A DNA stretch of 64,000 bases from Azolla caroliniana (taxonomy: Eukaryota; Plantae; Polypodiophyta), in the NCBI GenBank assembly GCA_043228905.1, contig JBHGNT010000014.1:14756001-14820000 (forward strand), in the 5' to 3' direction. The notes beneath the pieces were generated by a model that ran no database searches, had not been told where the DNA came from, and worked only from the letters and a program-made list of their open reading frames with translations. Every line of letters begins with the position of its first letter. Position 1 is the stretch's first letter. Positions 3,093 through 51,154 of the stretch are shown piece after piece. Both the position numbers and the translations under genes were made by a program.

Positions 3093-5475
3093 CTCTATTC
3101 CGATAAGGTAGTCACGATCGGTTTTGACCGCAGATATTATTCCCCATAGCTCTCTCTTTACTTGGGCATACTTCCTTTGTATTTCGGTTAACACCTTTGC
3201 ACCAAATCGGATTGCATACCAATTCTTTTCTTTGTCTTCTTGGTTTATCACCCATCCAATTCCGATTGGGCTCGTATCCATCGTCACATATATCAGGGTA
3301 CCTTTGGTGTAGTCGGCTTTTCGCAGTGCCGGAGCTTCCAATAATAGTTTCTTTAGCTTTTGAACCGCGTAGGTACGCTCATCTTCCCATTCGAATTTCT
3401 TCCTTTTCTTTAGTAATCCATACAATGGTTCAGCGACATGAGCATAATGTGGAATCCATATGTGATAGAATGCACATGCTCCCAAGAATCTTCGCACCTC
3501 TGTTTGAGACACACATTCTCCTTTCATCTCTTGAATATCGTTCACCTTGGATGGAGATGGCTTCCGGCCATAGGACCCACATAAGTGTCCTACTACCAAT
3601 ATTTCTGGTTGACCGAATGCAAACTTCTCTCCCGAAAACGTGAGATTTGCATCCTCAAGCTTTTGCAACACCTTCTCACTATCCTCTATATGATCGATGA
3701 CGAATCTTCGACAACCATCTTCATCTTTCGATTCATCCTTTTCTTCCACCAAGCATCCTTTGATCGGAATATCATCTAAGAAGGGCATTGTGATATCATG
3801 GATACAATCCCTCAACACTTTGTTCATGGCATTCACCATGTGGGCTACGGAATTTGTTGCACCTTGGGGTAAGGTGCACATCCTTACCAACCCGATCGGC
3901 GTCCTCATTGTCGTTATGTCTCTACTATCGACGGCCAATTGAAATTCATCATAGCCCGAGTAGAGATCACCAATGGAATAAATCGATCTTCCCGCGAAGG
4001 CTTCGGCAAATACATCCACACTTGGACCAATTCCGGCATTTCGGATTGTCACCTTGTTGACAGGTTGGAGATCTTGAATAAAGCATAAGGACCCGTTCTT
4101 CTTCGGCACCATAAACCATCTATTGGAGTAGGGAGCATTGGACAGCTCAAGTATTCCCATCCTAACCTTTTCCTTTAGAAGCTCAATCAACTTCGGAATG
4201 TGAGCTCTTGGAACCGTATCGGCTTGAGGTTCCAAGGTACATGCGGCACCGTAAAAATCACCATCGGCTCTATTCTCTTCGGGTCGGCACATCGGATCTC
4301 TTGTGGAGAGAAGGCAAAGGATTTCCCATGTCTCTCAAGCATTCGGCAGAACATTCTCTCCTCTTCAAGGAGAAGGAAATCTTCCTTTCGAACTTGTAGC
4401 TTTCCTTTTGTCTCTTTGGTGAAGACATGACCTATTGCCTTTGGATCCCTTAAGCTCGGATCATTAGCAACTTCCTTCATCTTCTGCCAACTATCTTCCG
4501 GTAGCGGAACCGGAATTGGCTTGATCTTCTTATCCACCATTTTATATTTTGTGTTGACTTCAGCTTCCTCCATCAAGATGCCTCAATGATATTCATCGAT
4601 GATAGCGTACATGTTGACAGAGTTAACCGAAATCACATTTTGATCGTGAGGGTAGCTCAAGTCCACGACTTCTTCGATTTTGCCGATGGTGTCGTTAAAT
4701 GAGGCTTCCTCTAGAATATGAGACACAAATTCTTCTTCTTCGATTATGCTTTCTTCTTTTAGCATCTTCTTGAAGTCTTGTATCTGACGCTTGTCCTTCT
4801 TGTTGAGTAGTGTTAGTTTACATGCGCCACTAGGTGTCACACATGTTGATTCTCCTTGTGATCCACTTATTTTGCTTCCTTGTGGGGACTTATGATTGCT
4901 CGGACTATTTGTGCCCCACGCTTCAATAGTCCGCTCTAAATATCCGAGGATTCGCCTCCAAGGCTATCTCGGTTCCTTTCGTGATTAGCCCACACCGTAA
5001 GGAATTGAACAGATCTTTGATTGTCAAGGCTCTTCACTCGCGTGAAGGCCGCTCCATTATTGAACACCTTAGTCTCCATCTGGGATGATGTAATATATGG
5101 TTGTCCTAGGATGAAGGGATGTGAAGCCAAGTCTTGCACGAAGAAGTGTTGTTCCATCTCCACATCTCCGATCATGACTTTAACATTGGGGCAAGCTCCG
5201 TATAGGTCTTCCATGGCCTTCGTTGCCGCTCGTATCTTCCATCCGTGGTTTGTGTTGATCGGCCATCTTCCTTTCTTGTAGAATTTGGTTGACATGAGGT
5301 TGATCTCCGAACCATGGTCAATCAAGGCTACCACAGTCTCTTTCTTCTCTCCAATCTTCACCGGCGTCTCTGTTGTCGCTCTTGCCCAATGAGGCCAAGA
5401 GTAATGGTTGTCCGCCATCACGTCTTCTTCCTCCTCCTCTTCCGATCTTGCCATGGTTATGGCACTTCTTTTCAC
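3093..5475 (-). pseudogene. gypsy A pol (protease, RT, RNase H), frameshifted
   Basis: ORFs 4936-5475 (aspartic protease), 4187-4576 and 3045-4292 (RT/RH) in different frames. Confidence 0.9.
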
Positions 5476-5502
5476 CGCCTCTTCATCCGATTGTTGCCGC
5501 TT

Positions 5503-7116
5503 CTACTTAATCAAGTCCACGATAGTATCGTGGAACTCCTTTTTAGCGATCCCAAGTAGCTCTCTCAAAGTAAGGTCGACATGACTGTCTAAAACCTTCT
5601 CCTCAAGGACCTTCCGCAAGTTTGTTGTTTGTTCTATGTCCGACCTTAGCTTGTAAGTCAGCGCCGCTTGTTCTTTTCCTTTCTTCACAGATTCATCGAC
5701 TTCCATCCGAGAAGGTTGGCTCGATCCACCGGGCTTCATGCTTGTTTCTCCTATCTCTTTTCGTGGCGTAGGTTGGGTTTGTCCTTCTTTCCCTGCATTC
5801 CTCGTATTGTGACACTTTGATGTGCCATCTTCTTCATCGGTTCTTTTCCTCTTCTCTTCAACAAGAGCTTCATAGTTGTCACACATAACCTCCGCAAAGC
5901 TCGTGTTATCGTCAACTGGATCCGACCATCCGGTAACTCATCGCACATTCCGGTTAGCATGTTTTAGATCCTCCAAATCTATTTTTCCTTTCTTTTTGCA
6001 CTCAAATACCGTTGGCCAAAACCCAACTCCTGGCTTGATCGTCTTTAGATTCTCTCTTCCGACTCGTATTCCCATCGATGCGGCATAGTGCATGGCTTCC
6101 ACATGCCTTGCATCTTTCTCTTCCACGATCTTTTTCAGCCCGCCCCTTCCGAACTTCACTCGTAGTGGGTTTCAGGTCTCACTCGAGTGGATCATGTTGC
6201 CATCCAAATAGACGACATTCTTGCGAATCGCGTCTTGCAAGTCAGTGCACTCCCTTCGCGAGTGCTCGAAGCTGTAGCACCACACACATCTATACACTTA
6301 TTTTCCCTTTCACCCACATCGACCTAAGTTGGCCAGCGATACTGCTTCAAACTTCTTGGAGAGCTATTCGATTATAGATTCCTCCATCGCTTTCTTGTCG
6401 AAATTGTTGATCGGCTTGTTAGAATCGATCGTCACAGGTGCCTTCCTCCACGATTGTGGATTCTCCATATCAGTTTCCTCTTGCCATTGTCGACGCTTAT
6501 CAGGACGGCTACAAGCCTTCTTCACCGTCGCCCAGTCCGCTACCAATCCATTTGGTTGTGTTTCATCCTCCAAAAAGTTACCCAATTCACGCTGATCTTT
6601 CAAATCCACTGCGTTGAGGAATAGTAGGACTTTATCTCCATCGAGAACTCGTTGATCAACACTCGGAAGTTGATTATACTTCTGGTCGAATTCGACATAT
6701 ACTCCAGGCGCACACATATTCTTCCCTTTCTTCTCGATCCAAGTCATTAGCGTATGTCGAGTCATCCGTGATGCGTCTTCAAGCATGTATTCAGCGAGAA
6801 GCGACTTTTCGAACTCCGCCCAAGTTGCATGCTCGTTTTCGATCTCCATGATGTGCTCACAGATCCCTGGTTCCACCACACATTTGAATCTAGAAATTTC
6901 TTTGAGATCATTGACATCCCTTTATTGCATCTCGTTCTGATAGGTAGCAAGAAAATCTGTGATGTTCTTGTCACCAAATAGTCCAGCTATCTCGACCGTA
7001 CGATCAACAGCTTTGTCGATTAAAGCTTCTCGATCTCTCACCTTCAGCATGTATTCCACTACGGACACCATGCCTTTCGTTAGTTCCTCACCTTGAGTTC
7101 CGCTTGTGGAAGCCAT
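5503..7116 (-). pseudogene. gypsy A gag, fragmented
   Basis: MASTSGTQGEE..FGDKNITDF.. and ORF 6364-6879; clearly homologous to gag at 24056-24550/32291-32661 (MTRH.LM.W.EKK.K.M; VD.KD..ELG..LEDETQ.NGLVADW). Confidence 0.85.
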
Positions 7117-7154
7117 CGTTGCAATTGATATCCTCCCTACCGCCTCTTTCACGT

Positions 7155-7784
7155 TGTCGAGGTTTTCCTCGCGGATGCGTGGAATGAGGCGGGACCTCAG
7201 GGGTCCTGTACCAAAGAGCAAGAGAGAAGGGACAAGAGACCCACTACGTGCGAGCGTAGATTCACAGGGACACGGCCCTTCGACACAAAGACGCGAGTGG
7301 GACAGCGACACAGAGAGACACGAATGTATGTATGTATTAACAAAGACAACAACAAGAACACGGAAGCAACAAAAACACGAAGTCGGTTACAACCGAACAG
7401 GCCGGCGAACAGATGCCGATGCCTGTTCGTAAACGCACAAAAAGACAGGAGCAAGTTGGAGGTGCTGCCGGAAGCACTCGGGCATTCCTCAGAGCAGCAC
7501 GAGCCTCCCGAAACCTACACAGAAGGAAGCTATGGAGTTTGCGAACCAGAGAGAGAGAGAGAAGCCTTCGCACGCAAACCGACAGCACTTCGTCCTCGAC
7601 GCTCCGCGATCCCCTCCCCCTTCTCGTCTCCCTCCTTTTTATAGGCAAGGAAGGAGCCGTTTCCCCTTTACTTCCTACCCACTAAATCTACCTGCCTAGC
7701 ATCTTCTATGGACAACATTCGACAAGAGCCGGTTCCTACGCTCCTGTGCACCGATTCCGCTTGTGGACGGTTTTCTTCACGACA
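7155..7784 (-). mobile_element. solo LTR (TGTCG..CGACA group) inserted into the PBS of gypsy A
   Basis: TGTCGTGAAG...CCTCGACA on the minus strand; 4-bp flanks acgt (7151-7154)/actt (7785-7788); removing it restores TGGTGAACTTG-ACGT-GAAAGAGG, matching 23992-24013. Confidence 0.85.
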
Positions 7785-7799
7785 ACTTCAAGTTCACCA
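7785..7799 (-). promoter_or_regulatory. PBS (tRNA-Trp type), disrupted
   Basis: TGGTGAACTTGA.., 8 nt from the LTR end; plant tRNA-Trp(CCA) ends ..CGTCGGGTTCACCA (from memory). Confidence 0.7.
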
Positions 7800-8688
7800 C
7801 TTGATTATGTCGTGAAAATTCGTCATTATGTGTGGATCGCAAGGCGGAACCGACGGGGTTCTAGACTAGAAGTATTTAGTGCAACACGTACAACACAAGC
7901 AAAATTCACATATAAGATGACTAGATGAGAGAAAACGTTCGTTTATTGCATAAGAAAATAGATTCTTTGTTAATTCAAGAATCTTGTTACAACGGGTCGG
8001 CGATGAAAATGAGAGATAGAATTTTTAAAGAAAGGAGCCAACAAACATGTAAGGAGTGGTCCAATATGAATACGAGAGATAATTTTTGACAAGAAAGATT
8101 GAGCAAGCCAAGCCAAGAGTTTGATATCAATATGAGAGATAATTTGTTTTGGAATCCTCGAGAAAAGAAGAAGGAAACAAAAAACTAGAGGGAAAAAATG
8201 GAACATATATCAAGTTCTTTGTTGATCCTCCTTCCCAATGTTACTTTGTATGTTCACTTTTAGTTGCATGGCCTCTAATTTTAGTTGCATGCTTCCATTT
8301 TTAGTTGCATGCCTTTTACTTTTAGTTGCATGCGACCGTCCGTATAATTCGGCCAAATGACCCAATCATCCAGAAAGTTTACCCCATGCGCAATCCGTAC
8401 GTGCGTCGCAACCAAACCATAGACGCGTCCGCGCACAAAAGTCCCAACCACGCACGCACGCGTCCTGACCGCGCGCTTGTCCAAAACTTCCACGCGGCAG
8501 TGCACGCGTACGCCCAAAACTTGCACACGCGCGTACGTCCGAAAACATCCACGTGGCCGTGCACGCACACGCACCGCGTCCCGATCGCATGCTCGTCCGA
8601 AACGTCCACGCGGCAATGCATGCGTACGCCCGAAACTTGCACATGCACTTACGTCCGAAAACGTCCACGTGGTCGTGCACACACACTA

Positions 8689-9392
8689 TGTCGTGCCTTT
8701 CGTCTCCGGATCGTTGCGTGAGTCGGGTGGGAACCCCCGAGGTTTTTGACTAGGAGGAAGAGGAATACAACTTAAGGCTAGTTATGAATAGTGGAAAGAG
8801 AAGTAAGATAGCAATCCCGTGAATCCCACGAGTTTAGTGTCTTTAAAACAATATTTAGATTATAAGAGTAATTTAGATGGCAAAATTCGTGAATCCCACG
8901 AATATATTAGATTGATCAATCCTTGTATATTAATCAACAACCTTATACATATTTCTCTCCTCCTTATATAAAGATGGAAGAGGCTAAGCATGGCTTCATG
9001 CTTTTTCACCAAAAGTGTCCATGCACACTAAACGTGCATGTGATGCTTTGTCATTTGCTAAGTATAGGGCTCATGCACGCTAGATGTGCATGAGTCAGTT
9101 TTAATGTCACGTGTAAATAAAATATTCACCCCCTAAAGAATACATGATTTTTACCTTTTAATAAAGGTATGTGTAAATAAAGGTCTTATATATATTAAAT
9201 CTATATATATAATACTAAAGATAAGTTATTATAATGGTAAAGTTGGGGTTTATCTATGTGGAGGTGCAGGGTTTGAATCCTGCCCTATGCACGTGATAAA
9301 TGTTTTGATATATTATTTATTTATTTATATGTATCTAAAATCGGATATATTATTTTATGGTTTTCACGTAGTGTGTGGAATACACTACGACA
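8689..9392 (-). mobile_element. solo LTR (TGTCG..CGACA group) nested in the tandem array
   Basis: tgtcgtg...tacgaca termini; TATATAAGGAGGAGAGAAA on the minus strand like the LTR at 17745; flanks acta/acgc (imperfect TSD). Confidence 0.75.
9224..9290 (+). other. tRNA-like A/B-box cassette, antisense to its LTR
   Basis: A-box-like TATTATAATGG at 9227, B-box-like GGTTTGAATCC at 9270. Confidence 0.55.
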
Positions 9393-9925
9393 ACGCGCGG
9401 CGTACGCATCCGTGCACTCGTCTGAAACGTCCACGCGGTAGTGCACGCGTACGCCCGAAACTTGCACACATGCGTACGTCCAAAAACGTCCACGTGGCCA
9501 AGCACGCACACATGTCGCGTACGCATCAACGCGCTCGTCTGAAACATCCACGCGGCAGTGCACGCGTATGCCCAAAACTTGCATATGCATGTATGTCCGA
9601 AAACGTCCACACGGTGTAGCCCAAGTCACCTTCAACATTCTGTGTCCCACACATTGATATAACTAATATGTTTTGGTTTCCCTTATATATCCTGGGTTCC
9701 AATGTTGTCATATCTATGTGGGATATCTCACAGTTTTGTCTTTTTTTTTTTTTCTTCAAACTTCATAGTCACATAACTTGATACTTGTTTATCCCTTTTA
9801 TGTGTAGTAAAATATGTTATGAAGCTCTTCAAGACATCTATCTTCCCATATGAATACATTAAGCTAATCTTAAATAATTGTTTTACTATTTTTTATATCG
9901 TGTGTGAAAAACCACACGACAACGC

Positions 9926-10510
9926 TAGTTCCCGATGTTGTTGTTGCGGTTGCTGCTTCTCTAAGGAGATTTGTTGAAGCTCCCCCAACAATCGTTAATT
10001 TTCTTCTTCCAATGCAAGAAACTTCTCTTTTAAGCATCGCAACTCCGAGAAAACGGATTGATATTCTTGAGCGCTAACAGTGGCCATAGTATGAGAGAAA
10101 AGAGGAATAAGATATTAGTATGAAAGGAGCAAGAAGAGAAGGAAGAGAAGGAAGGAGACCAAAATCAATTCAAACTGTCAGGAACAGTACTAAGACAGAG
10201 AAGTATTGTCAGGAACAGTACTCAAACAAAGAAAGAATTAGTACTATAAGATGAGGATTAGTACTAAGGGAGGTGTAGAACTCTTGAGAGAAGGAAAGAG
10301 GGTGAGAGAGAGAGAGAGAGAGAGAGAATGATGATAACAAAAGATATATACTATGTTAAGAGAATTATATACAATTGTAGCTAGGAGGCTTAAGACTGGC
10401 GTTGAACCGATTTGGTTCAAAATAATGCCTTGTGCCTCCTTTTATAGTGTTCTCAGGAGTACTCCTGAATCTGGAATATACATCAATTTTCTATAATATA
10501 TAGTCTAATG
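9926..10510 (-). mobile_element. possible older retroelement remnant (gag N-terminus plus LTR-like leader) hosting gypsy A
   Basis: MATVSAQEYQSVFSELRCLKEKFLALEEEN*RLLGELQQ.. from 10087; (GA)n and TATA-like segment upstream; no diagnostic domain. Confidence 0.3.
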
Positions 10511-10529
10511 GTCAAGAGCTCAACCCATG

Positions 10530-12118
10530 TAACATAAGGTCATGGTTTCGAGTCTTGCCATAACATGACAACAAGCTTAAGTCGGTTTCAACTTTGAGGC
10601 CCATTGCAAACATGGTTGATTTTACCTCGTTCGATTCAAGGATAAACATGCGGCCTTCATGAAAACTGTGAGCTACGACTCGATCGCCTCTTTCGATAAA
10701 ACACCCATCATTGTTGAATCGTTCTTGCATTCCTTGTTCAACAATCTGACCAACCGAGATTAGGTTTTTCATGATGGTAGGAACATGCAGTACGTTCTTG
10801 AGGTAGGTTTGTTTGCCATCGTTTCCAAATGGGACGTTCCTAATATGTTGTATTGGATGAGTCGTGTCATCGCTTGTCTCGACATGTATGGGACGTTCGG
10901 GTTTTCGTAATTCTCAAAACCAATCTTCATGAGACGTCATGTGGTTGGATGCTCCCGTGTCAACAAACCATATATTCTATGAGGGCATGGTGCTTGTTTC
11001 ACCTTGTGTTGCCATTGAGTGCGCTTTGTGCATCATCATGAACATTCTGCTATGATCGTTATAGTCGGAATTCGATGCGTAGTTCATGAGTTGTCGGCTC
11101 ATTGGAGTCGACACTCCTCTTCATCGTGACTGAGTTTTCCACAGTATCCGCATTTGATTGGGTTATTACGATTGCTTGGGTCGACGTGATGACTCCCCCT
11201 TCTGTCGAACTCTCTGGGATTGTTCTTGTCTGCTTGCCATTGGTGGGAGTTACGCTCTTGGGTTTGCCGACCGTGACGGCCTTGTTCGAATCGACCTCTA
11301 TTTCCACGGCCAAAATTTCTTCTATAATCCGACTAGGAGTAGAGCATTTGACTCTCTGGTGCATTGCTACTTTGTCGGGTGTGATTTTCCTCGACCATCA
11401 ATATTGACTGGAGATCGAAAAAGGTGGGAGGATTCTCACTCGTGAGAACGGTGGACCTTATTGCAATGAATCGAGGTGCCAAGAATCTAAGGCATATCTG
11501 CACCATTTCTTCATCATCATGCCAACATTGATCGACACGAGAGCATCGCACAGCTCCTTGAACTTCAAGGTGTAGGTGTTGATTGACATGTCCCTTTGTT
11601 GAATATTGTTTAGCTTCTGACGAAGTTGAAGCTTACGGGCAGCCGTATTAATCGCGAAGATCTTCTTGAGATTACTCCAAGCTTCTTTCGTCGTTTTTGT
11701 CTCTCGAATATAGCCGAGCATGTGATCATGTACGCATGATGCAAGGCAATACAACACACGGCTTGCAGCCTGCTCCCACGCTGGGTAGTTGGCGTGTGTC
11801 AGGTTGGGTTGTGTTTCATGAACTCCTTCAATATAGATCCAGTATCCTTGTCCGACAAGGTACTGATGCATCTTGTACTCCCAAGATGCGAAGTTTGTCC
11901 TGTCGAGCTTCGCCGTAGGAAGAGCGCTTCCCATCTGAGTATTCATAATGAATTCTTCTCCGTTTCTTTGGTTTGTGCGAATGTTGTGCAGTGATTAGCC
12001 GGATCTTCGTGAACGCAAACTTAAAACACACCACCCGTAGGGCAACGGGCTTGGATCAAGCTACCACGCGCTCTGATACCATGTAAAGAAAGGAGAGTGA
12101 TTGTATGTTGCGTAAGGA

Positions 12119-16200: not shown

Positions 16201-17909
16201 TGGGTCGGCTCACACTCTTCTGTGCCGGAGTTGGCATCCAATTTAAGGTTTCGATCAAGAGGGGTTGCCACAAATTTACACTGAGTCATCTTGAACTTGT
16301 ATAACAAGTTGAGGATGTAGTGCCATTGGGAGATCATAATGCCGGCCGGAGTCCGAATTACCTCGATGCCTAGGAAGTAATGAAGCTCCCTCATGTCCGT
16401 CATCTCGAATTTGTTGGAGAGGAGGGACTTCACCTTGTTGATGTCGACTAAATGCTCACCTCCAATAACCAGATCATGCACGTAGAGGATGATGACAATT
16501 AGGCTTCTAGAGTTGTCACGTACATAGAGGGAGTTGTCGGATTTTGACATTCGAAATCCGATTTGATGAAGATATTGCGTAATCTCGAATGCCAAGCACG
16601 CGGTGCTTGCTTGAGGCCGTAGAGTGGCTTCTTGAGTCGGCACACGACATTCAGATGAATGCGCGATTCGAAGCTTGGAGGTTGTACCATGTACACCTCC
16701 TCTTCTAATTCACCTTGGAGGAAAGCGTTCTTGACGTCCATCTGGTGGAGGTGCCACCCTTTTGCCACTGCGAGTACAATTATGGTCCACACCGTCATCA
16801 TCTTTGCCACGGGGGCAAATGTCTCTTCATAGTCGACTCCATGTGTCTCAGCGTATCCTTTCGCTACGAGTCGAGCTTTGTAACAGTTTACGGAGCCGTC
16901 GGCATTATACTTCACCTTGTAGATCCATCTGCAACCAATTGCCTACCTTCTTGTGTGGTCAGTGGGGAACGAGATCCCATGTCTCGTTCTTGGAGAGTGC
17001 TTGCATCTCCTCATTCATCGCTTCAACCCATTTGGGATCCGTTGCGGCTTCAGAAAATGTTTCCGGCTCCCGTATTGTCGCTACCTTCATCATAAAAGCG
17101 TAGTGGTATGCCATTATTATAATCGTTGTAGCCGAATCGGCTTACGGGGTTCTTTTCACGAGTGGATCGGCAGAGCTTCTTGTTTGCGGATACTATAGCT
17201 TTCTCCGCTCCATTTGTCCGGATCTCAAGGCCTTCGAACTCACTATCGAGGGAGTGAGTCAATTCATTGTCGTCGAAGTGATCGTCTTCATACTCTGGCA
17301 TTTGCGCCTTGCCTTTGTCCACCTTCGAACTCAGTCGAGATGTGCTTTGATCGCTCAGAGGCTCTTGTGGTCCACTAAGCCTTGTCGTAATTGGGCTTTC
17401 TTAGAACATGCACGTGAGTCAATCTTCGGCTTCTATCTCTATTTCGGCAGAATCTAGGTCGAGCGGAATTGAAGTCGAAGTTGTCTCTGGTGCATATCAA
17501 GATGCGGACTAGTCTAAAACGACATCTCGACTTACTCGAGATTTTCAAGTTGAGGGGTTATAGCACTTGTACCCCTTTTGCTCCAGTGAGTATCCTACGA
17601 GGAAACATTTCTCCGACTTCAGGTTGAGTTTTTTATGCTTTTCGTTCGGGATGTGCACATATGCAATGGAGCCGAATATCCAAACATGTGATAGATCCAG
17701 CTTCTTTCCAAAAAACTTCTCGTGCAGCGTTAGTTCATGCACGTTGTCGTGAAGATTTTCAGCAACAGTGTGAAAATCACGTGGAACGAGGAAAATTGAG
17801 AAGGTGTAATATGCACATGTATGGAAGGGGTGATGGTTAATGTGCACGTGTGATATGTGTTTAGGTGATCATTACACATATATATATAATAACCCTAACG
17901 CATACAATG

Positions 17910-17980
17910 AGGTGCAAGTAAAGGTTTTGAACCTTACACCTCCAAGATAGGAGGCAATAAACATACCATTAGACTACGTT
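17910..17980 (-). other. tRNA-like A/B-box cassette in the D 5' LTR (second copy ~21104-21174)
   Basis: Minus strand TAGTCTAATGG (17976-17966) ... GGTTCAAAACC (17933-17923) with aagg/cctt T-stem. Confidence 0.65.
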
Positions 17981-18568
17981 GTTTCATTCGAAAATTAATT
18001 TTGTTCATTATACATTTCACACAAAATTATTTGTACATGAGAGCTTAGATAAGGTACATGGTCATCATGCATCACATGTGATGCATGAGCGCCAAATGGC
18101 GATCATGCATCGCATGCATCTCATGCATTGTATGTATGTACTACACCCTCACATGCACATATGCATGGGGGCATCTATATAAGAAGGAGAGAAAGAGAAA
18201 GAAAAGGGGGACAATGTATACAATCAACAATAATTAATAGGTTCTAGTTATCTCGTTGGCAAGGTGTCTTCTATCTCAATTTTGAAGTTAAAGGTTCAAA
18301 CCAGGAATAGGAATTCCTACCTGTATCTATCTATCAATTTATCTTTAATACTTCTCGCTTGCGCTAGTCCTTCCGTCGTTTCGTTGCTTGCGCTAGTCCT
18401 TCCGAGGTTCCGTTATCTTGAACGATCCCATCATCAATCCTCCATAACCACTAGCGGATAAGAGGCCTGGTGCTTGTCCGCGCTTGTGACGCGCACATCA
18501 CGACGTTTGGCACATGTGTCATGCGCCACACGATATCTATTTGGTGAACCCGACGCAAAAAACACAAG

Positions 18569-20578
18569 GTGGTAATGGAGGCATCACGAATGATGGATGC
18601 AGTCTTGGATGGTTATGACTTAGAAGAGTCTATAAGAATAGAAGGTGGGCCGAGACTGATAATGCTTCCATTTATAAGGAAGTCCATTGAAATGATGTTG
18701 CAGGATGATAAGGATAGAGAGATGGATTATGTCAAGTTGGCAAGGCAAGCCGAAAGATTATATCAAGAAGTTCCGGATTGGTATGAAGCAGTTATGACAT
18801 CCAAATTCGGACCTCAACCTTTTCATGGGCTTCTCAACAATGATGAAGATGAAGATGATCGAGATATTCGTGATTATTGTCATGACGAGACATTGAACGA
18901 AGAATGTGGGCTTGTAAGAAAAGATCAAGATATTCAAGGATGCGGTTGTGAAGAGAGACGCGACGAAGAACATGGGCTTGACAAGAGACATGGATATGTT
19001 CACAGTGATCGTGAAGAGGCATTCAATGAAGAAGAAGGTTTCGAAGAGAGAGATCGACATTGACATGCCTATGGTCGTTACGAGGATCATTGCAAACTCG
19101 ACAAAGGAGAAACATGTGACAAAGAACGTGATCTTGAAGGGAGAGATTATGATTGTCATCATGAAGATCATTGCAAACGCAAGAGAAGAGAGATATGCAC
19201 GGAAGAAGGATGTGATCACGAAGAGACATGGAACGAAGAACATACATTCGAGGGGAAAGACCAAGATACTCAAGGATGCAGTCGTGAAGAGACATGTGAT
19301 GAAGAACATGGGTTCAAGGGGAAAGACCAAGATACTCGAGGATGCAATCGTGAAGAGACATCAGACAAAGAACGTGGGCTTGAAGAGAAAGATCAAGATC
19401 TACACAATTATGACAAAGACAAAGATCATTACAAACTCACAAAGAGTGCTCGAGATCTACAAAGTTATGATCGTGACAAAGATTACTATAAACACAAGAG
19501 GAGAAATCAATGTCGAGCTCTTCATGGTTGTGCTAATCAAAAAGCACTCGACAGAAGCCATGATGGTGAGAAAGGTTGGGATCGAAACTCTCATGGTTAA
19601 AATTTTGATGACAAGTATGATAGGTTTAATAAGAGCCACAAACAAGAGAAGGAGTTAGAAAAAGATGAAAACTTTACATTTAAATGTGATGACGGTGATG
19701 ATAGAAATGAAACACACGATTTAGGGCTTGACGATAGTAAGGGAGAATGCATTATTGATGGTGAGAGTGAGTGCCATGAGGTTTATAATGATAGAAAGTT
19801 GTGCACTTTCTGTGGATATGGTTATGATAGGGGTAATGATGAGGGTGAGAGTGACGAAGAGAAATCATGTGTTTTAGGTTGCCTTGGTTTTCTTCATGAT
19901 AGATTTTATAAGAGTTTCACTAGATCAAATGGTGACATTCATGAGGATATCCATTATGAAAATAGAATAGGTACTTGTGATGATGAGGATGTCCTGCAAA
20001 AATATGTCCATCTGGATGTGGAGTTACATAATCATCACACGGGCATAAGCAAGGAAAATCTAGGAAATCTTATCTGGGATGTGTATAATGATGATGTTGA
20101 TGTTGTGAGCATGTGTGGGAAGGATGGGATTAAGGTTGATAATATTGAGGATAATCTAGAAAATGCTATGATGGTTTGGGATATGTATAACAATAACGTT
20201 GGTGTTCTGAGTGTGTTTGGGAAGGATAATTTTAGGGTAGATGATATTGAATATGATGCTTATCTTGTAAAAATATATTCGGTGATCAAAGATGTCGTTA
20301 ACTCAAAGGATTATTATAATGATGATGTAAGTATAACTAACATTGAGGTTGTTATCGAAGAAGATGAGGTTGTGGTAAAATGGATGGTTATTACTTGTAA
20401 AGAAGAAAGGAAAGAAGTGATTATAAAGACAACACACAGGAAGGAAGGAAAAGATGCATCAAGATGGTGGGATGTTCAACTAAACAGAGGAGGTTGTATT
20501 GCCAACATTTCTATCTCCCATCTCAAAGAAAAGGATTGGCTAATTAGAAGAAGCACCCGGTTTTTAGATTCGTTTTAA
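18569..20578 (+). pseudogene. degraded acidic, His/Cys-rich repetitive ORF of unknown function inside element D
   Basis: ORF 18569-19063 continues past a stop with ~20-aa repeats (EEHGFKGKDQDTRGCNREET); ORF 19799-20578 is D/N-rich. Confidence 0.55.
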
Positions 20579-20599
20579 GAAGACACATCGTCAACACCC

Positions 20600-20790
20600 C
20601 AAGAAGATCGAAGAAGAAGGTTGCGTATTGGTCTGCAACAATAGCTTTGACAACCAACATAAAACGACAAGAAAGTTTGCAAGAAGGTGGTTTGGATCAT
20701 ATATAGAGCTAGACGGATCAAGGCTAGCCATACCGATTGCGGGAAAAAGACTAAAGATCTTCAAGAAAAGACAAGGTGAGGGTCCCGAAC
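20600..20790 (+). pseudogene. remnant of a gypsy integrase C-terminus
   Basis: RKFARRWFGSY/ELDGSRLAIPIAGKRLKIFKKR resembles the GPY/F region. Confidence 0.6.
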
Positions 20791-23475
20791 TCGATGATCT
20801 CAACAATGAAGATAGTAAGGCGAAACCCACAAACGTGATCAAGGTCAACGAGGACGTGGAGGAATCTCACACCGTAGCCGAAATCTCACATTCTCTTCTT
20901 GGCACGTACCAGAGGATGTGCGGTTTGGTGGAGGTGGATGTCGTGAAGATTTTCAGCAACGGTGTGAAAATCATGTGGAACGAGGAAAATCGAGAAGGTG
21001 CAATATGCACATGTATGGAAGGGGTGATGGTTAATGTGCACGTGTGATGTGTGTTTAGGTGATCATTACACATATATATATAATAACCCTAACGCATACA
21101 ATGAGGTGCAAGTAAAGGTTTTGAACCTTACACCTACAAGATAAAAGGCAATAGACATACCATTAGACTACGTTGTTTCATTTGAAAGTTAATTTTGTTC
21201 ATTGTACATTTCACACAAAATTATTTGTACATGAGAGCTTAGATAAGGTACATGTTCATCATGCATCACATGTGATGCATGAGCGCCAAATGGCGATCAT
21301 GCATCGCATGCATCTCATGCATTGTATGTATGTACTACACCCTCACATGCACATATGCATGGGGGCATCTATATAAGAAGGAGAGAAAGAGAAAGAAAAG
21401 GGGGACAATGTATACAATCAACAATAATTAATAGGTTCTAGTTATCTCCTTGGTAAGGTGTCTTCTATCTCAATTTTGAAGTTAAAGGTTCAAACCGAGA
21501 ATAGGAATTCCTACTTGTATCTATCTATCAATTTATCTTTAATACTTCTCGCTTGCACTAGTCCTTCCGTCGTTTCGTTGCTTGCGCTAGTCCTTCCGCG
21601 GTTCCGTTATCTTGAACGATCCCATCATCAATCCTCCATAACCACTAGCAGATAGAGGCCCGGTGCTTGTCCGGGCTTGTGACGCATACATCACAACGTT
21701 TGGCACGTGTGTCATGCGCCACACGACAACGCCAGATGTCGTACACCAATTCATGAGATAGATGGTCGTGTTAGCTGCTTCTACCCAATACGATTTCAAC
21801 ATATGCTTTTCGTTAAGCATAGCCCGTGCCACTTCAAGGATGTGTTGATTCTTGCGTCCGGCTACTCCATTCTGTTGTGGCGTATATCGACACGAAACTT
21901 CTCGTTGAATCCCTTCTTTTCGAAGATACGTCGTAAACTCCTCCGAGAAATATTCTTTGCCTTCATCCGATCGAAGGCACTATACGTGTCGATTCGTAGC
22001 TTTTTTGTTTTCGACTCTACTCTTGAATTTTTGGAAGTGTCCGAACACTTCCCTCTTTTGCCACATCGGGTAGATCCAAGTGTGCCTAGAGAAGTCGTCG
22101 ATAAAGGTCACGTAGTATCGGCATCCGCCGAATGTCACCGTTTAAGCCGGTCCCCATACATCAGAATGAATTACATCAAGTACGCCTTTGCTTACATTCC
22201 TCTCCTTCAGAAATGGATGCTGATGTTGCTTGCCGAATTGGCAAGCTGCACATACGCCTTCAATCTCTCTATCTTTGAAGGTCGGGAGTCCGATGAAGAC
22301 TCCTTTCGATTGCATCGCCTTGAGCTTTTGAAGGTTGATATCATCAATCCGCTTGTGCCATAACTCTATGTCAGACTCTACTTTCGTGCCTTTTGCGAAC
22401 ATGGCCGATTTCATCTCATGCGATTCGACAATGAACATCCGGCCCTCTCTTCATCCACGCGCGATGAGTCGACCCTCTTTTTTGATGAAGCAACCGCCTT
22501 GATTAAATCATACTTGCGTCCCTTGCTCAACAATTTGGCCGATGGAGACCAAATTCTTCGTAATGGTTGGTACATGCAAGACATTTTTAATGTAATTTTG
22601 CTTACCTTCTTTTCAGAATGGAACATTGCCAATGTGCCGAATCGGGTGCGTAGTGTCGTCTCCGGTTTCGACATAGCTGGGTCGGTCCGGCTCTCAAAGT
22701 TCTCAGAACCATTCTTGATGCGACGTCATATGGTTCGAGGCACCGGAATCAACGAACCATACGTCTTCCGAACCGGGGGTGCTAGTAGAACTAGAGACGG
22801 ACATAGAATTCGCTCTCTGTCTCATTACGAATAATCCACCGTAGTCTTCGTACTTAGAGTCGGCGGCGTTGTTGTGAAGATTTTCGGCAACGGTGTGAAA
22901 ATTGCGAGGAACATACAAAATGGAGTGGGGTTCTTCACACACAATATGAAACAATAATACTAAAGATACTATTTTAGATTAGTTTAATATCTTGGTACAA
23001 AAAGATGGAGGTCTTCAAGAGCTTTCGAATACACTTTACCACATAAGAAACGGACAAGTAAGTGGCAAGTTATGTGGGTATGAAGTTTGCGAAGAAGAAG
23101 AGAAAAAACAAAACTACGAGATATCCCATATAGACAAGACAAATAAGGATCCTAGAGTATATAAGCAGGGCCAAAATCTATTATTTTGTGTCTATGAGTG
23201 GATCATAGAATGTTTAAGGTGACTTCACCTAAACTAACCGGATGAATGGGTGTGACCTAACTACTTGTAAAGGTTTTGGTCGACCGGCGACCAGACGGAG
23301 ACGGCGAGACAGCAACCGACACCGGGAACGGATGGCGACGGACAGGATCGTATCGGGATTGGATTGAACTGGTCGGGACAGACGGATCTGTCGGTTGATC
23401 GTGGTGCATGGTGTTTTGAAGATTTTCGGTTTAAATAGAAGACCAAAAGCCTAGTAGTATTTTGTGTTTTAGAAG

Positions 23476-23545
23476 GGATGTGAGCAAGGCTTGAACCTTG
23501 CACCTCCAAGTTGAAAGTCAATCAACTTACCACTAAGCCAAGTCA
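23476..23545 (-). other. tRNA-like A/B-box cassette in the E 5' LTR (second copy ~49603-49672)
   Basis: Minus strand TGGCTTAGTGG (23540-23530) with D-stem GCTT/AAGT; GCAAGG-TTCAAG-CCTTGC T-arm (B box from 23497). Confidence 0.7.
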
Positions 23546-26299
23546 TATTTTCAAAAGCTTTACTTTGATAATTTTATATGTAAATTCTCATACATGAGAG
23601 CTTAGATGAGTTACATGGTTATCATGTAACACACGTAATACATGAGCGCCAAATGGCAAACATGCATCTCATGCATGTCTTGCACCCTCACAGGCATCAT
23701 GTGCATGGGGGCATCTATAAAAGAGTGGATGGAGAGGAAAAACGGGTCATGTATGAATCAAGAAATTAAGGGAAAGAAAATTTGTTATCCCATTTTTGTG
23801 ATGTATTAATCTTGTCTTTGAATCTAAAGTCAAGCGTTCTATCTTATCTCAATCTCTCTCTCTTTCAATCTATCTTAAATACTTTCTCGCTAAAGCTTGT
23901 GCAAACTTCGAATCCTTCCGGTCCAGAACCCTGGCGGTTCCGCCTCACGATCCGCGCGTAGTGATGGATCTTTCTTCACGACATAATTAAGTGGTGAACT
24001 CGACGTAAAAGAGGTGGTAGGAAGGATCAAGTCGAGGATCAACCGATACTTGGAGATGGCATCCTCAAGCAATCAAGCGGGAGAATTCGAAAGGATGATG
24101 TTAATCGTCGAACAAATGATGAGATCTCGAGACAACGATGTGAGCATGGAGAAGGACGTCAACCGTGTCGTGGAGCTCAAGGGTCAATTTGATGGAAGGA
24201 ACATTACAAAGTTCCTTGATGCATACAAAAGGGTGATGAATCAAAGGGACGTGTCTGAAGCGCATCAAATCACAAGTTTCAAGAGAGTGGTCGCCAATAA
24301 CATCCAAAGGCGGGTCATCGAGCTTCAAGAAGGGAAGACAACGTGGTCTGAGTTCGAGAGAGCAATATTATCTGAGTTTGCGACGGAAGATTTGTCGAGG
24401 ATGACTCGACATGTCTTGATGAAGTGGGTAGAGAAGAAGAATAAGAAGATGAGCGCTTCGAGGGTGTACGACGAGTTTGACCAAATGTTTCGTCGTCTCC
24501 CTGCCACAAACCAAGTGCTACTTGAGGAGGACAAGACTTTGTACTTCTTGCCCGGGGACTCCACTATATAAAAGAAGGTTGTATCATGTGCGTTCATGAC
24601 ATCATTTATAAACCCCTTATACGTATGTTTTTTACTATTTTAGAGGCCCTTTGGTAAAAAAAAAAAGATTAATAAAAATACCCCCTATTACCAATATATT
24701 TTTTGATAACCACCTATTTTAAATGCCCTTACATAGAAAATATACATGCACACATAGTTTTTAATCCAAGAAACCTAGAATGGATCTATGACCCTCTTTA
24801 CAATTGATGACTGACAAATTTGTGAAAGAAAATTAAACAGCATATGAAATTTTGTAGAAATGCTTCATCAAGTACCGCATAAATTGAAAACACAATGTGT
24901 AAAGTATATAGTAATGCACAAACAATTCAAAAACATTAGAGGTATATAATATATAAGCCACATATAAGTTCATGTCAATAGTTTATTTAAACATATGAAG
25001 AATATGAAGTGATAAAAAAGAATGTAATTTACAAAAAAATCAATCTTGAACTTGACATGCATATCTCAAAGAGCACACATGGGACAATCCAAATGCATAT
25101 CAATAATGAAATTACTAACAAATTAACATTATGTTTGGTTTAATGGATAAACTCATAAGAAGCCACTACATTATTTTTTCCCAAATACATTGATCAAACA
25201 AATGATAACATATGTTATATTTCCATTTGAAATGTAAGACATCACACTATAAAAATGAGATAAAATTAATCATTTTGTTGTTCAATGTCTACTTAAAATA
25301 CTTATTACAATAAAGGTTATCTTCATAAAGACCAACTATATAAATAGAAAACCCAAAGAAGCTTATTTTAGGTTATAAATTTCATGTAGTTTCTATCTTC
25401 AAGGTTGGACCTGTATTACAGCCATGACATCACTCTACGCCCTCTCCACATCCTTGGTTTGTTTCATACTTTCTTTTTGAATCTCAATAATATGACCTTT
25501 CAAGGAGGAGGATGCTTGTTGCTCTCTTGGTTACTCGTTTCCTTCTGAGTAGTTCATGTAAGGCATGAGGAAAAGCAAAAGTTGCATTTTTATCAAAATC
25601 AGTAACTCATAAACAGAATCATCATAAAAAATACCAGAATAGTTATTAAGGATCATTGATATAGGACTTCTATATAATTGGGTCCAAACAAAGGTCTTAT
25701 ACTTTCTTTATGACAAAACAATCCAATCTTAGCTTATGTATTTCAAATATCAATGATTTACGTTCAAAAAAAATTCTAAATTTTATCCAAAATATATTCT
25801 TTTCCAAATTTTTGGGGGTTTCAAATTTCCTGCTATATAATTCAAAAACTTATTTGAGAATAAGTCAAGTTATTAATGTTCATAACGTGGGACACAAGTA
25901 TGTACCTACACCAATGGGCCTCATATAACTCTTATATGGTTTCTATAGATGATATATCATATCTAAGGCATCCTTGGAAAAATAATGCTTCAATTTCTCA
26001 ACTTTAGTGTTACTACAAGACCATATGAGAACCATTGTATATTATCAATACATCAACCATATGTGTGCATATCCAAAACTATGAACATTTATGGTAAATA
26101 ATTATGAATAAATAGATCCACAACTATGAGGATTCATGATCAGTAATAAAAAAACAATTTTACATATTTAAGAACAACCTGGACAAAGATGTATGTTTTC
26201 TCTCTAGCGGAATTGTTTCTACCACCATCAAACAAGCAAGCAAATAAACATGGTTGGCCACCAATGACAACTAACTGTTTTAAATAATTCAATAGAAAC

Positions 26300-26593
26300 C
26301 TGGGATACAAAAAGTTGGGCCTATCCCCTCCACTCAAACAATCCTTGAGCATACGTAGATGATACTCGAGCATCTAATAATGGCAATAAAAAAAGAATCT
26401 TCATAAAAATTAGAGAAGGCTCAATCAATACCATTATAATTATGAAATTATACAGTAAACCAACGTTTATATTACCTCTCGATATATGAGTTCCCTTACA
26501 TCCTTTTTTGAAACTCTTCTTCTCTCGAATTCAAACTCCAACTTACTCATGGGTTACCTTAGCTAAGCCCTTGAAGTAATGATTTACTAAGGT
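26300..26593 (-). pseudogene. captured fragment of a plant group-D (TDY-type, MPK8/9/15-20 family) MAP kinase gene: two exons and an intron
   Basis: Exon 26593-26476 TLVNHYFKGLAKV[frameshifting deletion]PMSKLEFEFERRRVSKKDVRELIYRE; GT-AG intron 26475-26374; exon 26373-26300 MLEYHLRMLKDCLSGGDRPNFLYP then GT; matches the group-D pattern ALADPYFKGLAKVEREPS.QPI.K.EFEFERRR..K.D.RELIYREILEYHP..L.DY..G....F.YPS. Confidence 0.85.
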
Positions 26594-26899
26594 CTTCACA
26601 AAAACTAGTAAAACTTTTAGCAATCTCTTCTTGGACTCAAACTAGAATAAATACAAGCACAAACTCTACTTTCATATTCATCAAAGATGAAACAAGTTCA
26701 ATGAGAGTGTACCTTCTTTGCAAAATAATAAGTAATTATCTCTCGGCACCTAAAGATTGCAAATTCTGTGTTAAGAACATGAAATGTGTATATTTAAATA
26801 GATTACTATATTGTCTAGAATATAGTCGTTGGGTTGTCATGAAATACAACTCTTGTCAATCCGAAATCACATATTTTAACCTTGCAATCAACATTTGCA

Positions 26900-27369
26900 A
26901 GCACACGTGTGTGTTTGTGTGTGTGTGCGCGCATATGTATGCATTGTATTGTACTCCATGTTATGTATGTATGTGTGTACATATTGTATTGTATTCATTG
27001 AATTGCATGTGTATGTATTTACATATTGTATTGTAATGCATGTGTTGTATGTATGTAATGTGTGTGTGTTTGTGTGTGTGAATGTTCTATACATGTGCAT
27101 ATGTATGTATTGTATTGTATGTATGGAATGTGTGTGCGAATGTTCTATACATGTGCATATGTATGTATTATATTGTATGTATGGAATGTGTGTGTGAATG
27201 TTCTATACATGTGCATATGTATGCATTATATTGTATGTATGGAATGTGTGTATGCATGTATGTATGTGTTAGATGTGTGTGTGTGTGTATGTGTGTGTTA
27301 TATATATGTGCATATGTATGTATTGTATTGTATGTATGGAATGTGTGTATGCATGTATGTATGTGTTAG

Positions 27370-27422
<53 letters not shown>

Positions 27423-27983
27423 TGTTATATATATGTGCATATGTATGTATTGTATTGTATGTATGGAATGTGTGTATGCATGTATGTATGTGTTAGATGT
27501 GTGTGTGAGTATATGCTCTATACATGTGCAGATGCATGTATTGTATTGCATGTGTGTGTATGTATGTGTTGTTTGTGTGTGTTATATATATGTGCATATG
27601 TATGTATTGTATTGTATGTATGGAATATGTGTATGCATGTATGTATGTGTTAGATGTGTGTGTGAGTATATGCTCTATACATGTGCATATGCATGTATTG
27701 TATTGCATGTGTGTGTGTATGTGTTGTTTGTGTATGTTATATATATGTGCATATGTATGTATTGTATTGTATGTATGTATGTGTTATATATATTTGCATA
27801 CGTATGTATTGTATTGAATGTGTGTATATGTATATGTGTATGTGTTATGTGTGTGTGCGTGAGAGAGAGAGAGAGAGTATATGTTCTATACATGTGCATA
27901 TGTATGTGTTGTTTGTGTGTGTTATATATATGTGCATATGTATGTATTGTATTGCATGTGTATATATGTATATGTGTATGTGT

Positions 27984-28063
<80 letters not shown>

Positions 28064-30041
28064 TATATGTTCTATACATGTGCATATGTATGTATTGTAT
28101 TGCATGTGTGTATGTATGTGTTGTTTGTGTGTGTTATATATATGTCCATATGTATGTATTGTATTGCATTGCATGTGTATATATGTATGTGTATGTGTTG
28201 TTTGTGTGTTCTATATATGTGCATATGTATGTATTGTATTGCATGTGTATATATGTGTGTGTGTATGTGCCATGTGTGTGTGTGTGTGTGTGTTCTATAT
28301 ATGTGCATATGTTTGTATTGCATTGCATGTGTATATATGTATGTGTGTGAGAGTATATATTCTATATATGTGCATATGTATGTATGTGTTGTGTCCGTGT
28401 GTGTATTTCTTTTACATACCTGTAAATATTTTATGAACAGTAGTTGTGGCAGTAGCTACAAAGGATAGTGGCGACCAATGGCGGCACAATGAGGCGAGGT
28501 AAGGCAGCACAACAAGGCGAGTAGAGGTGGAAATGACAATACGAAGAGAACAAAGGAAGTTGCAAGGAGAGTAGAGGCAACAAAAACGAGAAGAATAGAG
28601 GTAACAACAAAGCGTAGAACAAAGGCGACAAAACCAAGAGAGTAGAGGAGGCAGCATTAGGCGGCAAAATGGGGCGGCAAAACTCAAAATTAAAAAATGT
28701 GAATGTATCAATGTTATGTTGACTATGAATGTATGTATCTATGAATGAATGAATATATGAAATTTGAATGCATGAATATATGTATACATGCATGAATATA
28801 TGTATGCTTGCATGAATGTATGTATGTATGTATATGTATATGTATATAATATACATATGTAATGTATGTATGTATGAATGAATATATATATGTATACATT
28901 GATATGTGTATATATCTAATATGTAATATGTAATGTATGTATGTATGAATGAACATATATATATGTATGCATACATATGTGTATATATCTAATATGTAAT
29001 ACGTAATGCATCTATGTATGAATGTACATATGTGTATATGCAATATGTAATGTATGTATGTATGAATGAATATATATATGTATACATACATAATATGTGT
29101 ATATATCTAATATGTAATATGTAATATGTAATGTATCTATGAATGAATGTACTTACGTGTATATGCAATATGTAATGTATGTATGTATGAATGTACATAC
29201 ATATATATGCATATATGTAATGTATGTATGTATGTATATGTATATAATGTACATATGTAATGTATGTATGAATGAATATATATATTGTGGTGTGCATGTG
29301 CACAATATTTATACATACATACGTGTATATGCAATATGCAATGCATGTATGTATATGTATATAATGTACATATGTAATGTATGTATGAATGAATATATAT
29401 ATTGTGGTGTGCATGTGCACAATATGTATACATACATATGTGTATATATCTAATGTGTAATAGGTAATGTATCTATGTATGAATGTACATACGTGTATAT
29501 ACAATATGCAATGTATGTTTGTATATGTATATAATGTATGTATGAATGAATATATATATTGTGGTGTGCATGTGCACAATATGTATACATACATATGTGT
29601 ATATATCTAATATGTAATATGTAATGTATGAATGAATATATGTACATGAGTAATGTATGAATGTAGAATGCGTATATATGTAATATGTAATGTATGTATG
29701 TGGATGTTTGTTTGTAATATGTGCGTAATATGTATGTATATATGTACATATTCTAGTTTGTATGACCCCATGTGACCTACATATATGCTGATATGTGGAA
29801 TATGTATGTATGTATGTGTATGAGTGTATGTTTGTAAAATTTATACACATATCATTGTAACCATAAACACGTATATACATGTAGCAATGTATAAATGAAT
29901 ATATGCATGTCCATGTATGAATGTACATATGTGTATGAATATGTAATGTATGTATATTTTTATGTGAATGAATATGTGCATATGTGTGTGTGTGTGTGTG
30001 TGTGTGGATGTTTGTTTGTAATATGTATGTATGTGTATGTG

Positions 30042-30077
<36 letters not shown>

Positions 30078-49352: not shown

Positions 49353-51154
49353 GTATCTAGTGTTAATTCACATACGCAGGTTCTTCACCATCACAGACGT
49401 TGTCTGCTCTTCCGCATTGACGGCCTTGTCCCCAACAAGACAGAGATGGCGAGACTGGATGGCGACGAACAGGATCGGAACAGGATCGGATTGAATTGGT
49501 TGGGACAAACGGATTGGTTGGTTGATCGCGGTGCATGGTGTTTTGAAGATTTTCGGTGTAAATAGAAGACCAAAAGCCTAGTAGTATTTTGTGTTTTAAA
49601 AGGGATGTGAGCAAGGCTTGAACCTTGCACCTCCAAGTTGAAAGTCAATCAACTTACCAGTAAGCCAAGTCATATCTTCAAAAACTTTACTTTGATCATT
49701 TTACATGTAAATTCTCATACATAAGAGCTTGAATGAGTGACATGGTTATCATGTAACACATGTAATACATGAGCGCCAAATGGCAAACATGCATCTCATG
49801 CATGTCTTGCACCCTCACAAGCATCATGTGCATGGGGGCATCTATAAAAGAGTGGATGGAGAGGAAAAACGGGTCATGTATGAATCAAGAAATTAAGGGA
49901 AAGAAAATTCGTTATCCCATTTTTGTGATGTATTAATCTTGTCTCTGAATCTAAAATCAAGCGTTCTATCTTATCTCAATCTCTCTCTCTTCCAATCTAT
50001 CTTAAATACTTTCTCGCTAAAGCTTGTGCAAACTTCGAATCCTTTCGGTCCAGAACCCAGGCGGTTCCACCTCACGATCCGCACGTAGTGACGGATCTTC
50101 ACGACAACATAATTCGTGAGTTGTCGACTAGTGGAAGCCGACTCACACATATTCTTTTGGCACTATTCTTCGCGGTGGCCGACTTTGCCGCAATATCCGC
50201 ATCCGATTGAGGTTTGTTGGCTCGAACTGGAATGGTGGCTCCCCCTTCTTCCGAAGGTTCCTCGATGACCTCCATCTTGTTGCCGTAATTGAGAGTTGTT
50301 TTCGTAAATTAGACCTTGTCCGCCTCGTCCTTGGCCGAATCGGCCTCTTCTTGCACGGTCGTGTCCTCTTCCTCCGTCTGAATGCGTGTAGAGCATGTGG
50401 CCTTTTGAGGCGTTGCTCCTTGTTCAAACATGATTTTCTTCGACCAACAAAATGGATTGAAGATCGAAGAAGGAGGGCGGATTCTCTCGCGCTAGTACGG
50501 CGGCCGCATCGCACTAAACCGTGGTGCAAGGCCGTCGAGGCATATTTGCACCATTTTGTCATCCTCCACATTGACGCTTATCAAGCCGAGTGCATCACAA
50601 AGGTCCTTGATCTTCAAGGTGTAGCTTGTGATGGAAATATCCCGTTGTTGGATGTTGTTCAACTCTTGGTGGAGTTGAAGCTTTCTCACGGTTGTGTTGG
50701 TGGCAAAGATCTTTCGTAGATTCTCCCACGCTTCCTTCAACATCTCGGCTTCTCGAATGTAGCCGAGCATGTGGTCGTGAACACATGTCACCAAGCAATA
50801 CATCATTTGGCTTGCCGCTTACTCCCAAGTTGCATAGTCGGCGTCTTTCGGGTAGGGTTAGTTTTCTTGTGCTCCCTTGATGTAACCCCAATATCCTTGG
50901 ACGACAAGGTATTGGTGCATCTTGTACTCCCAAGATGCGAAGTTGTTTCGGTCCAACTTCTCGGTAGGGAGAGAGAGTATTCCCCATTTAACTATTCATT
51001 ATCGATTAAGCTTCCTTTCTTCTTTTCCTTCTCTCTTGAACACGAGCTATGTAGTGGTACTACGATAATGATGAACCGGTTCTTGTCGAACGTTGGCGTA
51101 GAACACAACACACGCGGATGGGCTAGATCGAGCTACCAAACCACTCTGATACCA

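Follow-up and report, generated by a model that had tools for sequence, protein, structure and literature searches.

The window, that is, the whole 64-kb stretch of Azolla caroliniana DNA that was analysed, is a nest of LTR retrotransposons, recognised from RT, RNase H, integrase and gag domains together with a repeat map; the features on which the analysis bears are collected in Table 1. Element D is 3984 bp long, and element E, once its nested inserts are subtracted, about 4.7 kb. A conserved PBS follows the LTR in both, as it does in three (L003, L004 and L012) of the related loci fetched from metagenomes, and gag homology is found in E and in the loci L003, L007 and L010. Pol is absent from D and E, while RT and RNase H domains are present in their gag-pol relative. 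Target duplications of 4 bp flank D (acgt/acgc) and, in decayed form, E (gcgt/acat).

Table 1. Features of the 64-kb window, numbered from its first letter
Feature	Position	Strand	Remarks
Gag-pol Phygy-like relative, interrupted 5' LTR 7808-9921 without cassette	3096..9921	-	
Solo LTR, distant relative of D	8689..9392	-	z 8.1 over D 116-328
Cassette, solo LTR	9227..9290	+	1 mismatch in each box; box starts 9227/9270
LTR of a second, very abundant family; TATA 10446-10440	10177..10570	-	3' end 10177 putative
Antisense box pair of the second family, A 10501 and B 10545, at the outer LTR end	10501..10560	+	
5' LTR of D; PBS 18542-18555; TATA 18176	17745..18535	+	
Cassette, D 5' LTR; A box 17976-17966, B box 17933-17923, 3' hairpin arm to about 17905	17905..17976	-	box starts 17976/17933
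3' LTR of D, PPT just before	20939..21728	+	
Cassette, D 3' LTR	21099..21170	-	box scan; box starts 21170/21127
5' LTR of E, TG..CA; then PBS 23992-24006	22870..23983	+	
Whole cassette of E 5' LTR, apparently tRNA-derived	23470..23540	-	tRNA positions 8 to about 76; 5' acceptor strand unrecognisable; box starts 23540/23497
B box, E 5' LTR cassette	23487..23497	-	3' end 1 nt short compared with most relatives
A box, E 5' LTR cassette	23530..23540	-	0 mismatches to the presumed consensus
Spacer between cassette and Pol II block, E, AT-rich and indel-rich	23541..23590	-	AT 0.80; fast-evolving; TFIIIB landing predicted, role putative
Conserved, CATG-rich Pol II promoter block, E, ending in TATA box 23716-23722	23590..23722	+	conservation
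3' LTR of E, split by nested copia	34155-34582 + 49438-50106	+	
Cassette, E 3' LTR	49597..49667	-	box scan; box starts 49667/49624

Several other features of the nest deserve mention. The interiors of D (18548-20938) and E (32250-34154) hold, in place of pol, long acidic, internally repeated and degenerate reading frames. The gag of E is broken by a large insert (~24550-32250), some 5 kb of which is microsatellite-like DNA rich in ATGT/GT, and similar simple-sequence DNA adjoins L002 and breaks the gag of L004. L003 has a single LTR with a PPT before it and a PBS and an open gag frame (about 380 codons) after it, a tandem arrangement with a common LTR. A further solo LTR, at 7155-7786, has inserted into the PBS of the gag-pol element; its target resembles ACGT and was likely duplicated over 4 bp. 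At 54058-54509 and 58303-58844 there are imperfect AT-rich tandem repeats with AAACCCTAA words and a ~142-bp tandem repeat; a degenerate stretch on the + strand (12430-15100) was judged by eye to be LINE-like, and three ORFs tested there gave no Pfam match. A search of viral contigs gave no RT relative.

The window was scanned with what we take to be the A-box and B-box consensus motifs. With at most one mismatch per box and a spacing of 40-48 nt, five pairs were found against a mean of 0.1 (maximum 2) in 100 dinucleotide shuffles made in 1-kb blocks; looser limits gave six pairs against 0.73 (maximum 4). In all five pairs the box starts lie exactly 43 nt apart. Every pair listed by an earlier sequence-only reading of this DNA was re-found in its place, together with the geometry of a type-2 Pol III promoter that it had described, an A and a B box at tRNA-like spacing. 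The sixth pair (10501/10545, 44 nt, + strand) had escaped that reading. Since the PBS, PPT and gag of D and E are on the + strand and the boxes on the - strand, the cassette is antisense in both elements; this agrees with the earlier description of boxes opposite the LTR's own promoter, within U3 and with the TATA box downstream. The orientation of the solo LTR was set by its homology to D. The LTRs at 7155 and 7808, previously reported to lack the pair, yielded none to the box scan or to a profile of the cassette. The same profile finds weak sense-strand matches (E 4e-4 to 0.15) at 18262-18303 and 21443-21496 (+), and also in L006, L007, L010, L012 and L013; in D-type LTRs they are located downstream of the TATA box and contain a B-box-like word.

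It had been proposed that the cassette is held in common by three LTR families that are otherwise divergent. This view cannot be kept. Between the B box and the TATA block, about 260 bp, D and E share 72% identity, and around the cassette the solo LTR can be aligned to D (z 8.1). The five pairs are therefore not independent and, judged by these alignments, the three kinds of LTR are relatives of Phygy-like gypsy type and share one origin, not three. The PBS of the lineage is presumably a match to tRNA-Trp. The Phygy group of non-chromovirus Ty3/gypsy elements is characterised by a 4-bp NCGN TSD and an 81% tRNA-Trp PBS (Neumann 2019, PMC6317226); the element termini and an NCGN-like TSD fit this lineage in D, E and the gag-pol relative, and so would the PBS if our assignment to tRNA-Trp holds. 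In the available part of that source Phygy is described from Physcomitrella only and without a Pol III cassette, and the window elements are assigned to it here tentatively, from these features. The LTR of the gag-pol relative (7808-9921, - strand) and that of E (22870-23983) have the first ~300 bp and the last ~70-95 bp in common, but the former has a different middle part, with tandem repeats (8444-8686 and 9400-9610) and no cassette. By this comparison, U3 blocks are exchanged as modules inside the lineage. As a related gag-pol element in the same window does without it, the cassette is not essential to the lineage.

The sixth pair belongs to another LTR family. Just past 10570 the read depth drops from tens of thousands to under 500, and loose ends at this position read like the complement of a polypurine tract in three runs, which places the pair antisense and upstream of the family's TATA box. 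The family is present in runs with three organism labels. Its A-box variants at a frequency of at least 10% fall at two degenerate positions only, and those of the B box at one position, at which the window copy stands almost alone; the A-box depth is several-fold below the B-box depth, so that some copies may lack an A box. No similarity to D or E was detected by alignment or profile, and because the D/E profile misses the 10501 cassette at E<=5, a common origin with D/E is not supported. Beyond the putative LTR end comes a T-rich leader that lacks a tRNA PBS, and what looks like a short gag start lies near 10088. A T-rich stretch without a tRNA PBS between LTR and gag is likewise known from SM-Tcn1 (PMC2864245, as far as its available part goes). 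The LTR is likely to be the 5' LTR of a Tcn1-like gypsy element, a putative family name, with pol outside the window. The family represents a second, likely independent case of a backward tRNA-type promoter.

Copies outside the window were represented by 15 metagenome loci, selected through an exact match to 26 nt of the Pol II block that lie about 100 nt off the cassette, a choice that favours well-kept copies from loci that may share one host species. L011, with only 47 nt upstream, was uninformative and left out of all alignments, and L014, in which the contig ends, was left out of alignment A1. The antisense pair was found at 43 nt in all 14 informative loci, 97-107 nt from the fetching motif; the A box is free of mismatches in 13 of them, and the B box has none in four, one in nine and two in one. 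DNA runs reveal a very abundant family in which a depth island covers the B-box half, with loose ends at its edge. The depth over the B box does not exceed that of the LTR promoter block, depth being no measure of copy number, and the variants of these runs, of which 40 of 131 rows were covered, were not used for box conservation. A run presumed to be RNA gave three contigs on the E LTR, which carry neither strand nor expression information. Two motif scans gave two phage-like coding matches and nine further matches without tRNA genes; a scan for bacterial promoters, of no relevance here, was empty.

Rates of change were compared in a set of 18 LTRs, 63-98% identical, from which the solo LTR was left out; as the sites of a small tree are not independent, all p values are indicative only. 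Positions are given in what we take to be the tRNA numbering of the cassette. In the A box the six fixed positions changed by 0.17 parsimony steps per site against 1.80 for the five degenerate ones, and all five variable sites are degenerate positions (chance 0.002-0.013). Over both boxes, fixed positions differ from degenerate ones at p=0.002, from linker plus flanks at p=0.008 and from the linker alone at p=0.08; G10, A14, G19, G53, T54, T55 and A58 are invariant in the 18 LTRs. Likelihood rates are about 0.4 for the core of the boxes, 0.45-0.82 for the linker, 0.51-0.64 for the Pol II blocks, 1.12 for the spacer and 1.23 for the sequence after the TATA box. The core boxes evolve about three times slower than the flanks (1.14; p=4e-5), with p=0.06-0.08 for core against linker. 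The whole cassette, at 0.70, is also slower than the flanks (p=2e-6), and its rate cannot be told apart from that of the Pol II blocks (p=0.66). Between positions 8 and 58 it is free of indels in all 18 LTRs, compared with 7 and 11 gap patterns in flanks of equal size. There is decay as well: C56 is T in four of the 18 aligned LTRs and in the solo LTR (5 of 19 copies), including L003 with its open gag frame, and indels at positions 59-65, the B-box end, are found in E, L013, L006 and D/L012; G10 is lost in the solo LTR. An alignment of this kind had been suggested as a check on whether boxes, spacing and stems are better kept than the flanks: boxes and spacing are, while the stems show no covariation above shuffles.

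The linker changes nearly as slowly as the boxes do, and part of the signal could therefore come from Pol II motifs on the sense strand or from RNA structure. In the extreme, the cassette would be a dead tRNA or SINE relic in U3, its apparent conservation coming from sense-strand Pol II enhancer motifs or from a slow, GC-richer block. Near-invariant CAAT and CACCTC words that overlap the cassette are examples of such sense-strand motifs, and a relic would fit with a cassette that changes at the rate of the Pol II blocks, with a core not significantly slower than the linker, with the decay of C56 and the B-box end in several lineages and with a related element that does without the cassette altogether; moreover, 'not a few' Repbase LTRs hold tRNA-like pieces according to the available text of Kojima (PMC10886601). 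What makes this explanation improbable is the pattern of change, confined in the A box to its degenerate sites with the key letters of both boxes held invariant, and the recurrence of pattern and orientation in a second family of no detectable similarity.

As to descent, C32, T33 and A37 are near-invariant in the 18 LTRs and, along with the boxes and their spacing, suggest a tRNA ancestry of the cassette. A functional tRNA gene was considered and rejected: ARAGORN reports no tRNA in the window or the 15 loci, Rfam gives no tRNA match (nor, in the window at E<=5, a 5S match), and the cloverleaf is not kept, with 60% of the cells paired in the D stem, 43% in the anticodon stem and 79% in the T stem and no covariation above shuffles. 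A SINE inserted independently with its own TSD and tail, named earlier as a finding that would speak against the proposal, has left no sign, neither a target duplication nor an A-rich tail being found in any of the 19 cassettes (the longest flanking direct repeats, 5-8 nt, are within the shuffle range, and the longest A runs measure 2-5); an ancient insertion could have lost both. Nor were free-standing copies of the cassette found outside LTRs in the window or the 15 loci (92 kb).

The conserved T-arm-like hairpin described in the sequence-only reading turned out to be another fold. An alternative 3' hairpin around the B box has 85% of its cells paired, against 31-56% in slid controls, and its pairing is kept mostly by changes that are G-U-compatible on the antisense strand; a second short hairpin is also predicted. 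These hairpins, an indel-free and conserved linker, and single-sequence folds of z -1.1 to -3.2 for eight antisense cassettes, compared with -1.5 and -0.4 for two sense strands, are what one would expect of a functional antisense Pol III RNA made from U3, which would fold into hairpins and regulate the element, for instance through small-RNA silencing for copy control or as a decoy. Such an RNA nevertheless seems unlikely. The B-box hairpin, which was picked from the very sequences on which it was tested, does not covary more than shuffles do (457 of 500 pair at least as well), the covariation term is -0.04, and the hairpin arm is decayed in both LTRs of E. The ~100-nt antisense RNA of defined end that had been envisaged is not supported by the termination signals either: in 18 cassettes the first T4 run is met at distances of 66-310 nt from the A box, without conservation (a spurious pattern match in L001 and L014 was left out of the count).

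A role in reverse transcription was also weighed, in which the genomic RNA, bearing the complement of a tRNA in its 3' U3, would base-pair with the primer tRNA at its D and T loops and so aid strand transfer. The bipartite PBS of Ty3 and the tRNA-like U3-R sequence of HIV-1 are precedents for pairing with primer tRNA, U3 is part of the genomic RNA, and the antisense orientation in U3 that such pairing needs is the one found. Cassette positions 61-72, however, bear no resemblance to the primer 3' end that the PBS predicts, the wobble-freed positions G10, G19, G53, T54 and T55 are invariant yet 11-13 and 15 vary, and the second family has no tRNA PBS after its putative LTR end; this explanation is accordingly the least likely of those considered, and we regard it as very improbable.

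The reading that we prefer is that of a backward A/B-box pair in U3, kept across copies while the fold was lost, which would serve as a TFIIIC site that opens or shields the adjacent Pol II promoter. Its probability may be put at roughly 0.45. The key box letters are conserved across copies, so binding of TFIIIC is predicted to be likely; and as the cloverleaf is not kept and the terminator distance is not fixed, a role at the level of DNA is favoured over one of RNA. One capture of a tRNA gene or SINE head would have taken place in the common ancestor of D, E and the solo LTR, and a separate one in the second family. Once bound to the A and B boxes, TFIIIC would bring TFIIIB to the AT-rich spacer that separates the cassette from the Pol II block, and the two factors beside the TATA block could hold the Pol II promoter open or shield it from silencing that spreads in from the flank. 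Antisense Pol III RNA, if any, would be a by-product running outward from the promoter and stopping at a variable T run. Against this reading speak the near-equal conservation of linker and boxes, the loss of C56 and the indels at the B-box end, and a relative that does without the cassette; in addition, TFIIIC is not known to need a fixed box spacing, and the distance from A box to TATA box varies (151-200 nt in the D/E types, 55 nt in the second family). The region upstream of the cassette has an AT content of 0.65-0.88 in all 19 cassettes, the spacer being AT-rich in any case, and a CAA lies within 20 nt near the predicted start in nine of the 19.

There are precedents for parts of this scheme. 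The pathway by which TFIIIC places TFIIIB, and the action of yeast Pol III complexes as barriers to silencing, are described in PMC13578239, and in Leishmania a gene depends on the divergent tRNA-like A/B boxes next to it (PMC4950102). In the trypanosomatids the upstream boxes of snRNA genes are likewise tRNA-like without a cloverleaf, stand head to head with the neighbour that needs them and have been proposed to keep chromatin open; there, however, the boxes stand a fixed ~104 bp from a Pol III gene, whereas in the window the neighbour is the Pol II TATA promoter of a mobile element, 55-257 bp away, and its dependence on the boxes is hypothetical. The tDNA/TFIIIC barriers of yeasts and animals also use A and B boxes as a DNA-level element that limits silencing, the role predicted for the window cassette; they are host elements serving host genes, while the window cassette is borne by a retrotransposon. 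Such barriers are stated, in the available parts of PMC13578239 and PMC9540200, not to have been described in plants.

Among retrotransposons the closest likeness is to Helenus, a group of TRIMs (also TRIMp3) of 311-1263 bp, non-coding, with a tRNA-derived part in the LTR for which an origin from a SINE within an LTR was proposed (Kojima 2024, PMC10886601). In both cases boxes A and B are conserved in tRNA-derived LTR sequence that is no functional tRNA, and the sole plant family, from Selaginella, has GGAGGT ahead of the B box, as do the window cassettes. The tRNA part of Helenus is in sense orientation in the supplement sequences, the available text giving no orientation, whereas the window cassettes are antisense and, for that reason, cannot transcribe the element; no antisense case was found among the supplement sequences compared, a minor share of that supplement. 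Helenus elements are short and non-coding, and those of the window are gag-bearing, 4-5 kb long, with LTRs of 0.4-1.1 kb and a conserved TATA block; plant and fungal Helenus members have a 5-bp TSD, and D and E one of 4 bp, decayed in E. As the short non-coding TRIM structure, the sense promoter and the 5-bp TSD are all missing, membership in Helenus was rejected.

The sequence-only reading had proposed a tRNA-type counterpart of Cassandra. Such a class has in fact been published as Helenus (PMC10886601), although the sequences compared read in the sense direction. Cassandra, a TRIM, has a Pol III promoter within a plant LTR too, in this case a 5S-derived type-1 promoter that transcribes the element itself (PMC10886601, PMC12786077); the window cassette is of type 2, points away from the element and has no Rfam match to 5S or tRNA. 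The only Pol III promoters in LTRs named in the available parts of PMC13570524 and PMC12786077 are those of Cassandra, Helenus and Ajax, all of which are directed into short elements without coding capacity and take the place of the Pol II promoter. A search of the literature that covers few subscription papers and no Repbase entries brought up no account of antisense tRNA boxes within the U3 of Pol II LTRs. As Kojima's survey is restricted to TRIMs under 1000 bp and mentions other LTRs with tRNA-like parts (PMC10886601), similar cases may sit undescribed in Repbase.

A backward, conserved Pol III promoter next to an intact Pol II promoter needs another job than transcription of the element. 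In a broader and rather doubtful extension of the preferred reading, Pol II-driven LTR retrotransposons of non-seed plants would have captured backward tRNA promoters at least twice and would use the TFIIIC/Pol III of the host as a built-in chromatin barrier or promoter opener, which would make this an anti-silencing device borne by a transposon and the first tDNA-type barrier in plants. If the TFIIIC shield is real, it would show how retrotransposons of very high abundance can remain transcribable within silenced chromatin, and thousands of natural sites, with and without intact boxes, would be at hand for the question of whether tDNA barriers work in plants.
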